Below are positions 43,931 through 45,472 of a DNA stretch of 64,000 nt, piece by piece; position 1 is the first letter of the stretch; each line of letters starts with the position of its first letter. The notes beneath the pieces are model-generated. The model was given only the letters and a program-made list of their open reading frames with translations. It searched no databases and was not told the origin of the DNA. The translations under genes were made by a program, and so were the position numbers. This stretch comes from a virus. Its lineage: Duplodnaviria > Heunggongvirae > Uroviricota > Caudoviricetes. The DNA lies in the IMG/VR virus record IMGVR_UViG_2713896908_000007. One strand, 5' to 3'.

Positions 43931-45046
43931 TTATTCAGCCGCCACCGGTTTTAACAAGCCAGCTTCGAGCAGTTTACGCGTCAACCACTGCTGGCCTTTC
44001 CCCGTTAATTGAGGCGTCAACCGTATCTGGTAGCCATCTTCATCATCCAGCACCACTTCTTTCACCGTGAAATACCCGGCGTTGATGTATTGCTGAAACG
44101 GTACATTTTTACGTCCACCGGACGCAATCAGGATGCCGTTCTCCCGTAACCAGGCAAACAGCGCGTTTTGCTTAAGTCCAACAACCTTTGCAAAATTTCC
44201 AATCAGGATCCCCTTGGCCACTGATACCCGGTCGGCAAAATCGACTTTGGGGGCTGCGGCCACCAGCTGCTGATTTAGCTGGTGGGCTTTCTGTTCCAGA
44301 AGTTGCTTTTGTTCAGCCAGTTCGGCAGCCAGACGCAGGGCTTCTGGAAGCGTCTGGGGGATTGCGATCGGTTGCTGTTCTTTTTGTCGGAAGTAGCTGT
44401 CTTCCAGTTTTTCAAAGAATGCCCATGCCTGATCGGTTTCGAGCATTTTAGCGTGACGGGCAGCTCCTCGTTCTGTCCACAGGATGAGAGAGCGCGCTTT
44501 GGGGGAGACTGGATTTTGTGAGTAGTTTAAAGCTACCCGCAAATTTTTCAGCTCATCGCCAATAACCTTGAAAAAGTGCTTCCCTTCAACAAAGCGTACT
44601 TTGTTCTCATGATGATTTTGACGAATACGGATTGTTTCTGTCCCATACCCTCTAGCAAGAGTCTCGGTTGTCACGACACGTACTCCCTGCCATTCCAGAA
44701 CGGGAATTTCATCCGGCTGATTCTGAACAACCACCAGTTCCGATTCCTGAACTGAAGGTGCATGAATTTTTTCTGATTTAACGTTAGTTGCTTTCATTCT
44801 GTGTGCCTCCTTGCGTGCTTCGGCTGCGACGGTTGCGTAATTCAGATGACCCTGTTCGAGCAGGTATTCACGGATATCGGTTAGCAGAATGCGGTGAACC
44901 GCGTGTTTGTCCTTTCTCCGGTAAAGTTGTTTGGTGATCATGAAGTAGTTGGCAATAACGCCCGGTATATCCCTGGTACTGATACAGGCAGTGTGCTGTT
45001 CAATTGCCTCGATCATCTCTTCACGGGTGACTAATGACGTTCTCAT
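43931..45046 (-). CDS. ant: antirepressor (Bro-N/ORF6N-like plus KilAC domain; P1 Ant-like)
   Basis: 371-aa ORF; C-terminal KilAC signature …KNVPFQQYINAGYFTVKEV…LTGKGQQWL…; ATGA-coupled to an upstream 73-aa ORF. Confidence 0.65.
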   Translation of the reverse strand: MRTSLVTREEMIEAIEQHTACISTRDIPGVIANYFMITKQLYRRKDKHAVHRILLTDIREYLLEQGHLNYATVAAEARKEAHRMKATNVKSEKIHAPSVQESELVVVQNQPDEIPVLEWQGVRVVTTETLARGYGTETIRIRQNHHENKVRFVEGKHFFKVIGDELKNLRVALNYSQNPVSPKARSLILWTERGAARHAKMLETDQAWAFFEKLEDSYFRQKEQQPIAIPQTLPEALRLAAELAEQKQLLEQKAHQLNQQLVAAAPKVDFADRVSVAKGILIGNFAKVVGLKQNALFAWLRENGILIASGGRKNVPFQQYINAGYFTVKEVVLDDEDGYQIRLTPQLTGKGQQWLTRKLLEAGLLKPVAAE

Positions 45047-45264
45047 AGTCCCTCCTGAGCAGAAGCGTTAACAGGGAGGCACCAGTAACTGAGAGAATTG
45101 CGCGAATCGGTAGAAAAGCGGGCAGAGAAAATACAGGGAGCATCCGGAAGCTGAGAACGTGCCTCATCTTCTGTCGGTGCAATAACGAAGTGATAGTGAC
45201 GTTTTTGGCAGGAGTAAAAGCGCCAGATAAATTCAGGATGAGCAGGGGTAGGGATAGTAGCCAC
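45043..45264 (-). CDS. small protein upstream of ant (P1 Icd-like by position)
   Basis: 73-aa ORF, GTG start with AGGAGG RBS. Confidence 0.45.
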   Translation of the reverse strand: MATIPTPAHPEFIWRFYSCQKRHYHFVIAPTEDEARSQLPDAPCIFSARFSTDSRNSLSYWCLPVNASAQEGL

Positions 45265-45294
45265 AATGGCAGCCTCCTTTTGCTAATTTAAGGA

Positions 45295-45390
45295 GCTACC
45301 GCGTGAGGTCTCAATCTCAATGGCGGTAGCACTGACTGGGTTGAGACTACCGGCGCAAAAGGGAACCGGCCTGCCTTTCGGCAGCCCAGC
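45295..45390 (-). ncRNA. structured leader / candidate c4-like antisense RNA upstream of icd-ant
   Basis: Nested inverted repeats (gctaccgc…gcggtagc; ggtctcaa…ttgagac) plus a second hairpin at about 45367-45386; by analogy with the P1 c4-icd-ant operon. Confidence 0.35.
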
Positions 45391-45448
45391 CAGCACTACC
45401 ATTGATCTCTGAGCTAAACGCTACGTATGGCTGTGCGATGGCATGACA

Positions 45449-45472
45449 CAAAAAAAGACGCTTTTGGCGTCT
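45449..45472 (-). terminator. rho-independent terminator downstream of pacB
   Basis: Minus strand: agacgc-caaaa-gcgtct followed by seven T. Confidence 0.6.

Follow-up and report, generated by a model that had tools for sequence, protein, structure and literature searches.

We analyzed a 64,000-nucleotide stretch of the virus record IMGVR_UViG_2713896908_000007 (Caudoviricetes), hereafter the window, which by its map of open reading frames (ORFs) is a P1-like (Punavirus) phage-plasmid in reverse orientation relative to P1. Accounts of P1 immunity usually list one immC region (c1), one immI region (c4-icd-ant), and immT. Judged from its sequence, this phage-plasmid carries a complete and probably functional second immI-type module, placed between pacB and the repressor gene c1, and its replicon has a canonical immI as well. 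The module (43899-45623, minus strand) is a 1.7-kb insertion in place of the 24-bp pacB-c1 spacer of P1. Comparison of the junctions showed that the P1 spacer was replaced exactly, the pacB stop codon being TGA here and TAA in P1. In PLSDB, positions 43850-45700 of the window matched plasmid pEA16-1_1 (Escherichia albertii BIA_16-1; NZ_CP117651.1, 99,447 bp) with 100% identity, and window position w corresponds to pEA16-1_1 position 56909-w.

A preliminary description of this DNA had placed a c4-icd-ant module with the architecture of the P1 operon directly between pacB and c1, converging on c1 and with no kilA- or repL-like gene after ant. This synteny is correct, and every listed element of the P1 operon was found on the minus strand. 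Neither kilA nor repL lies 3' of the module ant, nor was either seen anywhere else within the window. The setting of a canonical immI, i.e., sim upstream and kilA-repL downstream, does not apply to the module, which is flanked by pacB and the convergent c1. The gap between the end of ant and c1 is 32 bp and holds a single GC-rich hairpin, a putative bidirectional terminator with weak U-tracts that would be common to the two convergent genes. At the other end, the limit first drawn at 45472 was too short, and the module reaches ~45620.

A C4 antisense RNA covaries with its targets

The region of nested inverted repeats that had been noticed at 45295-45390 is a C4 antisense RNA gene by its Rfam match (RF01695). 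The RNA folds at -46.4 kcal/mol (z=-5.6), a stability reached by none of 200 shuffled sequences, and the fold has the expected form of a long closing stem enclosing two hairpins. Antisense/target complementarity of the C4 kind is present, in that two exposed segments of this RNA match sites in the icd leader. The a' segment (GUCUCAA, 45341-45347) is an unpaired stretch with 7-bp complementarity to UUGAGAC, the a2 site of the leader (45308-45314). The b' segment (CCUUUUGC, 45355-45362) forms a hairpin loop with 8-bp complementarity to GCAAAAGG, the b2 site (45276-45283), which overlaps the Shine-Dalgarno sequence of icd (AAGGAGG, 45273-45279). When the icd leader was folded alone, CUCCUU paired with the Shine-Dalgarno sequence in a hairpin of -17 kcal/mol (z=-2.6).

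The same two target sequences recur as a1 and b1 in a leader RNA upstream of C4 (see below), and all of these sites were compared across relatives. Scanning IMG/VR with the invariant C4 core and adding GenBank relatives gave 74 loci, in which two a alleles (GAGAC and GGAAC) and two b alleles (GCAAAAGG and GUCAAAGG) occur in all four combinations. The a' segment fits a2, and the b' segment fits both b1 and b2, at every one of these loci; a1 is discordant at two only (L048 and L054). Among the 38 distinct sequences, C4 and a2/b2 are paired in 100% of cells, with four doubly compensated pairs, and C4 and a1/b1 are paired in 99.6% of cells, with four pairs changed on both sides. None of 500 shuffles reached the observed pairing, and no slid register came near it. 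These results provide strong evidence that the a2/b2 sites, the a1/b1 sites, and the C4 loops are functional partners.

One of the two loci with a discordant a1, L048 (IMGVR_UViG_2778261639_000014), is a recombinant in which pacB, as the upstream context, is joined to a cassette carrying a more divergent icd (81%) and a P1-type Ant; no c1 was found within 3.5 kb. The breakpoint appears to lie between a1 and C4.

An isrK-family leader carries the a1 and b1 sites

The RNA upstream of C4 belongs to the Rfam family isrK (RF01394). In its predicted fold, a1 (UUGAGAC, 45497-45503) lies in the loop of the second hairpin and b1 (GCAAAAGG, 45479-45486) is single-stranded. A terminator scan found that the leader ends in an intrinsic terminator, i.e., a stem at 45456-45472 followed by a U-run. 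This hairpin and T-run had been taken for the terminator of pacB; they lie inside the isrK-family match and form the 3' end of that RNA, and a separate pacB terminator was rejected. The locus has the make-up of a Gifsy-1-type locus, in which an isrK-family RNA with a Rho-independent terminator is followed by a small ORF and an antirepressor gene.

The homologous position in P1 and in the canonical immI of pEA16-1_1 scores as c4-a1b1 (RF03163), not as isrK. Two c4-a1b1 loci (L003, 1718-1770; L006, 8450-8502) were set against 45451-45529, and the consensus structures of the two families proved alike in plan, with hairpin 1 followed by a hairpin 2 that holds a1 in its loop. Because this plan matches c4-a1b1, we take isrK to represent, in this C4 lineage, the a1/b1 element. 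The two families occupy homologous positions upstream of C4, while in Rfam isrK has no clan and c4-a1b1 is placed in clan CL00128; from these comparisons they may belong in the same clan.

What the a1 and b1 copies do is a separate matter. The isrK-like leader could chiefly be a trans-acting activator as in Gifsy-1, with a short, terminated a1/b1 RNA that titrates C4 or remodels the read-through transcript and thereby turns on translation of icd and ant; a1/b1 would then be neither passive duplicates nor a site of attenuation in cis. We hold this view tentatively, as a real possibility that falls short of an expectation; it bears on what a1/b1 do and leaves the reading of a functional second immI untouched. 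In its favor, the Rfam match includes the terminator, and a1 and b1 are exposed in the predicted fold and covary with the C4 loops. Short IsrK of Gifsy-1 activates orf45-anrP and has complementarity with STnc1160 (PMC4825925), and the hairpin of the icd leader sequesters the Shine-Dalgarno sequence, as reported for orf45. On the other hand, the P1 record (NC_005856) calls the a1/b1 targets merely 'putative', and the a1 mismatch is tolerated at 2 of the 74 loci.

Both RNA genes have been overlain by predicted coding sequences (CDSs). A 39-aa 'ash family protein' called by the Prokaryotic Genome Annotation Pipeline (PGAP) (window 45283-45402, minus strand; plasmid 11507-11626) lies wholly over the C4 RNA, and gp120 of JL22 (68 aa; equivalent to window 45421-45627, minus strand) lies over the isrK-like RNA. 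An NCBIfam search with the 39-aa 'ash family' peptide gave no match. Both are probably RNA genes mis-called as CDSs.

The module encodes an Icd homologue and a mosaic Ant

The 73-aa ORF was correctly proposed to be icd: its product is homologous to P1 Icd and matched the NCBIfam family phage_ICD_like (NF033153, E=2.6e-13). Alignment to the P1 immI region matched the 371-aa protein to Ant1 from end to end and to no other P1 gene. The ant start overlaps the icd stop as ATGA (45043-45046), and the two genes are putatively translationally coupled. An internal in-frame start at codon 84 (ATG, 44795-44797) is preceded, at 8-nt spacing, by the Shine-Dalgarno sequence AAGGAGG (44806-44812) and would yield a predicted Ant2-like product of 288 aa. 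P1 ant2 likewise starts at codon 84 (NC_005856 annotation), and the motif RKEAHRM, whose codons supply the AAGGAGG, the 8 nt, and the ATG, is invariant relative to P1 Ant1.

For the coupled 371-aa protein, the preliminary description had named Bro-N and KilAC domains. The antirepressor assignment and the KilAC domain stand, whereas Bro-N (PF02498) was rejected; Pfam reported only ORF6N (PF10543, residues 116-201, E=2.8e-20) and ANT/KilAC (PF03374, residues 259-361, E=1.2e-31). Aligned with P1 Ant1, the protein shows clear homology in its N-terminal third and near identity in its last ~140 residues (KilAC), and the ORF6N domain takes the place of the central part. Among pacB-c1 modules the N- and C-terminal parts are at least 95% identical, and the central part is 59-100% identical. 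Further variants were found: Ant of L042 has a P1-type central domain, ant of L022 is truncated to 254 aa, and D6-like loci carry a Rha-type antirepressor behind the same isrK-C4-icd cassette. Because Ant variants occur behind a shared cassette, we conclude that modular reassortment involves both the regulatory cassette and the domains of Ant. Long Ant proteins, with the P1-type central part and ORF6N in tandem, were seen behind an isrK-type C4 cassette in the IMG/VR loci L023 (469 aa), L044, and L071.

This mosaicism bears on the target of Ant. The RNA control could be the same and Ant be aimed at another repressor, e.g., one from a lambdoid prophage in the same cell or from a phage that enters it, with the choice set by the swappable ORF6N domain. 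Such a target would suit a protein whose central domain is replaced relative to P1 Ant1 and is the only hypervariable part of the module, whose central-domain DNA matches the ant genes of many Shiga toxin (Stx) phages at 80-90%, and which has relatives with the P1-type centre (L042) or with both centres in tandem (L023). However, the N-terminal third and the KilAC part, including the Ant2 start, are of the P1 Ant1/Ant2 type, and the gene lies beside c1 under a C1-operator-like site. We consider a target other than C1 decidedly unlikely, and C1 the probable target of the module Ant.

A C1-operator-like site lies at the start of the module

The operator-like site TTTGCTCTAATAAATTG matches the C1 operator consensus ATTGCTCTAATAAATTT at 15 of 17 positions and aligns with the annotated P1 Oc4. 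As in P1-type immI, the module is predicted to have a C1 operator at its promoter. The window as a whole contains 12 C1-operator-like 17-mers against 0.26 expected, among them 42388-42404, 42472-42488, and 42936-42952. These sites include the immC cluster upstream of c1 and are consistent with a fully P1-type C1 regulon.

A canonical immI is present on the same replicon

The canonical immI region of pEA16-1_1 (58.4-63.4 kb) starts ~1.5 kb past window position 1, and the preliminary description could not see it because it lies outside the window. kilA and repL are both located there. The view that two immunity circuits are physically adjacent therefore holds for the extra copy beside c1 and not for the canonical immI, which is elsewhere on the plasmid. 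What lies beside c1 is an extra immI and not the canonical one moved there. RCS47, JL22, and vB_EcoM-673R5 all three carry a pacB-c1 module together with a canonical immI, and D6 has two cassettes.

The C4 loops of the canonical region are a' CUGCUAA (P7 type) and b' CACUAAC (P1 type), with the targets UUAGCAG and GUUAGUG. By these sequences the canonical immI of pEA16-1_1 is a P7/P1 hybrid, and the canonical lineage also appears to reassort a and b alleles. The canonical loops are unrelated to those of the pacB-c1 module. When isolated loop oligonucleotides were compared with RNAduplex, cognate b-loop duplexes had energies of ~-12 kcal/mol, versus -2.6 to -7.9 kcal/mol between modules. Because the C4 loops differ completely, the two switches should be orthogonal, and the prophage would then have two immI specificities that are independent of each other.

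An insertion sequence (IS) with an integrase-core transposase (60105-61232) lies between the canonical ant and kilA (plasmid 59960-61700) and may separate kilA-repL from the P1-type control region. The canonical ant has ASLS at its C-terminal end, where P1 has AIG. Because the last three codons differ from P1, the IS-side junction is placed at the very end of this ant.

Proposed regulation and alternative explanations

The elements of the module can be assembled into a model of its regulation by analogy with P1, whose mechanism we take from the NC_005856 annotation, the summary in PMC8546580, and general knowledge. Transcription would start just past pacB, from promoters overlapped by the C1 operator. 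Part of the transcripts would end at the terminator of the isrK-like leader and bear the a1/b1 copies, and read-through transcripts would include the C4 RNA, which would be processed out as in P1. The a' and b' segments of C4 would then pair with a2 and b2 of the leader, and with b2 covering the icd ribosome-binding site, translation of icd would be blocked and the translationally coupled ant would be off too. Absence or titration of C4 would allow Icd and Ant to be made, along with the nested Ant2-like product, and Ant would inactivate C1. The isrK-like a1/b1 RNA would serve either as a Gifsy-1-like decoy or activator or as a cis target.

Several observations weigh against this model. No convincing promoter came out of a consensus scan of the DNA upstream of the isrK-like RNA, and the two putative promoters, which are weak matches, are therefore assigned solely by alignment to P1. 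The C4 gene lies 3' of an intrinsic terminator, and C4 synthesis therefore requires read-through. The 7-nt a segment is poorly discriminated by loop-only duplex energies, and the a energies are not relied upon here. The central domain of Ant differs from that of P1 Ant1 and is highly mosaic, so that the protein target might not be C1. Finally, the PLSDB gene table for NZ_CP117651.1 lists no CDS at plasmid 11863-12978, the position of ant. The ant ORF is intact in the window and annotated in sister plasmids, and its absence from the table reflects either a RefSeq pseudogene flag or an incomplete table.

The missing table entry, together with the truncated ant of L022 (254 aa), would also fit an inert recombination remnant, whose hairpins merely terminate pacB and c1 and whose ORFs are decaying. 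We judge this very improbable, since intact ORFs occur in the window as in most relatives, the RNA-RNA covariation is perfect over four alleles, conservation extends to the coupling overlap and the internal start, and the module is found in ~289 plasmids. That the module is the sole immI, moved beside immC after loss of the canonical locus, would agree with the single C4 found by Rfam and the lack of kilA/repL within the 64-kb window, but it is refuted for this genome by the 100%-identical pEA16-1_1, which has canonical c4-a1b1, C4, icd, ant, kilA, and repL, and RCS47, JL22, and 673R5 likewise hold both modules. A functional second immI-type module in addition to the canonical one is the reading that we retain as likely.

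The module is widespread among P1-like plasmids

The whole pacB-module-c1 query was held, at a coverage of at least 80%, by 289 PLSDB plasmids. A query with the P1 junction matched 703 PLSDB plasmids, 314 of which have the direct P1-type junction. It appears that some two-fifths of the P1-like plasmids that have been sequenced possess a second immI, with a different code, next to c1.

The same layout is present in RCS47 (NC_042128), JL22, vB_EcoM-673R5, and pTZ20_1P at 90-97% nucleotide identity. The module of RCS47 has the b allele that is not found in the present one (GUCAAAGG / CCUUUGAC), and the central domain of its Ant is only 83% identical. The RCS47 record labels a gene 'ant', and two short ORFs plus ant were described between pacB and c1 of pTZ20_1P, as in RCS47 (Venturini et al., 2019; PMC6906374). 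Neither the four records nor that paper recognizes the C4 and isrK RNAs or the Icd homologue at pacB-c1, and a literature search found no paper describing the P1-like insertion as a complete second or orthogonal immI with its own C4 code. The insertion is a common, partly documented polymorphism of P1-like plasmids. Its layout is ordinary, and the novelty lies in reading it as one of two orthogonal immI modules and in its mosaic Ant.

Feature coordinates and neighboring genes

Table 1. Features of the pacB-c1 module and its flanks in the window, and of the canonical immI region of pEA16-1_1.
Feature	Sequence	Position	Strand	Remarks
pacA	window	47108-48301	-	
pacB	window	45624-47108	-	Upstream flank; stop TGA (P1: TAA)
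C1-operator-like site TTTGCTCTAATAAATTG	window	45604-45620	-	Immediately past pacB stop; counterpart of P1 Oc4/Op51
Promoter region, two putative sigma-70 promoters	window	45536-45606	-	Alignment to annotated P1 P2c4 and P1c4 only
Putative promoter 1	window	TTGTGT 45601-45606; TACATT 45578-45583	-	17-nt spacer
Putative promoter 2	window	TTGCGC 45560-45565; TATGCT 45536-45541	-	18-nt spacer; start ~45529 downstream
isrK-family leader RNA	window	45451-45529	-	Rfam RF01394, 58.2 bits (gathering score 50)
C4 antisense RNA gene	window	45319-45406	-	Rfam RF01695, 75 bits (gathering score 45), E=8e-13
icd leader	window	45265-45318	-	Carries a2, b2, and Shine-Dalgarno sequence
icd homologue, 73 aa	window	45043-45264	-	GTG start; 73% identity to P1 Icd
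ant, 371-aa Ant1 homologue	window	43931-45046	-	59% identity to P1 Ant1, full length
GC-rich hairpin at ant/c1 junction	window	43902-43923	strand-neutral	Terminator scan: 9-bp stem, 6 GC pairs; comparison with P1 junction
c1 repressor gene	window	43047-43898	+	Convergent downstream flank
cre	window	40861-41892	-	
Canonical c4-a1b1 RNA	pEA16-1_1	58450-58502		Rfam RF03163
Canonical C4 RNA	pEA16-1_1	58571-58656		
Canonical icd	pEA16-1_1	58704-58925		
Canonical Ant1, 348 aa	pEA16-1_1	58922-59968		
kilA	pEA16-1_1	61709-62509		
repL	pEA16-1_1	62539-63381		

The window also contains two TnpB-family (IS200/IS605-type) genes, at 48503-49684 (plus strand) and ~27833-28963. One of the two separates lpa from pacA; at this place P1 has nothing but an 85-bp gap and LPpac, the late promoter, and the insertion could affect late expression of pacA and pacB. 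Type I restriction-modification genes (S and M subunits) adjoin phd/doc (window 52301-55074; plasmid 1835-4608).

Significance and comparison with known systems

The RNA recognition codes and the Ant domains reassort as modules, and we regard the present results as a refinement of a known system, with no new mechanism. They bear on annotation, in that RNA genes are now called small 'hypothetical' or 'ash family' proteins, and on whether Salmonella IsrK is the a1/b1 partner of a C4-type RNA. They bear also on which P1-like phage-plasmids, many of them with resistance genes, co-exist, exclude, or induce each other. A bolder reading, which we think unlikely, is that two orthogonal RNA-gated switches with freely reassorting a and b alleles form a combinatorial immunity barcode, that the second switch is wired next to c1 and its Ant has an exchangeable ORF6N domain derived from lambdoid-phage antirepressors, and that read-through from ant acts as antisense on c1. 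If the barcode reading were true, the plasmid-prophage could sense or cross-induce unrelated prophages that share its host cell, or relatives that superinfect it.

The closest comparison is with the immI of P1 and P7. The module shares with it the element order on one strand (Oc4, a1/b1, c4, a2/b2, icd, ant1/ant2) and the Rfam family of C4, as well as two-site complementarity with b2 over the icd ribosome-binding site and upstream a1/b1 copies. It also shares homologous Icd (73%) and Ant1 (59%), the nested codon-84 start of Ant2, and a predicted C1 operator at the promoter. P1 and P7 differ from each other at a and b as the four module alleles do, i.e., a few loop bases set specificity. Unlike the immI of P1 and P7, the module lies between pacB and c1 and not between sim and kilA-repL, its leader is isrK and not c4-a1b1, its recognition sequences are unrelated, the central part of its Ant is ORF6N, and it accompanies a canonical immI.

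In Gifsy-1 of Salmonella, a read-through mRNA of IsrK encodes orf45 and the antirepressor AnrP, short IsrK switches on translation of orf45-anrP, and STnc1160, an RNA processed from further downstream, has complementarity to IsrK (Hershko-Shalev et al., 2016; PMC4825925). Features common to the module and this locus are a terminator-bearing isrK-family RNA, a small ORF that is reached by read-through and coupled to an antirepressor gene, and a downstream RNA complementary to the isrK-family RNA. It differs in having pacB and not the antiterminator gene antQ as its upstream neighbor, in encoding a P1 Ant1 homologue, and in residing in a plasmid-prophage. The whole cassette has ~68% nucleotide identity to the isrK+C4 cassettes of Stx2a phages and phiP27; cassettes at this level of identity occur in Stx2a phages, phiP27, and APSE (PMC7313666), and some Stx/phiP27-type records already annotate 'C4 antisense RNA' together with 'isrK'.

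The satellite phage P4 (CI RNA, seqA/seqC) was compared by description. SeqA of P4 was called a structural homologue of IsrK by Hershko-Shalev et al. (PMC4825925), and P4 and the module share a processed antisense RNA that lies between copies of its target on one transcript. Unlike the module, P4 has no icd or ant, and its CI RNA acts by premature transcription termination of replication genes.

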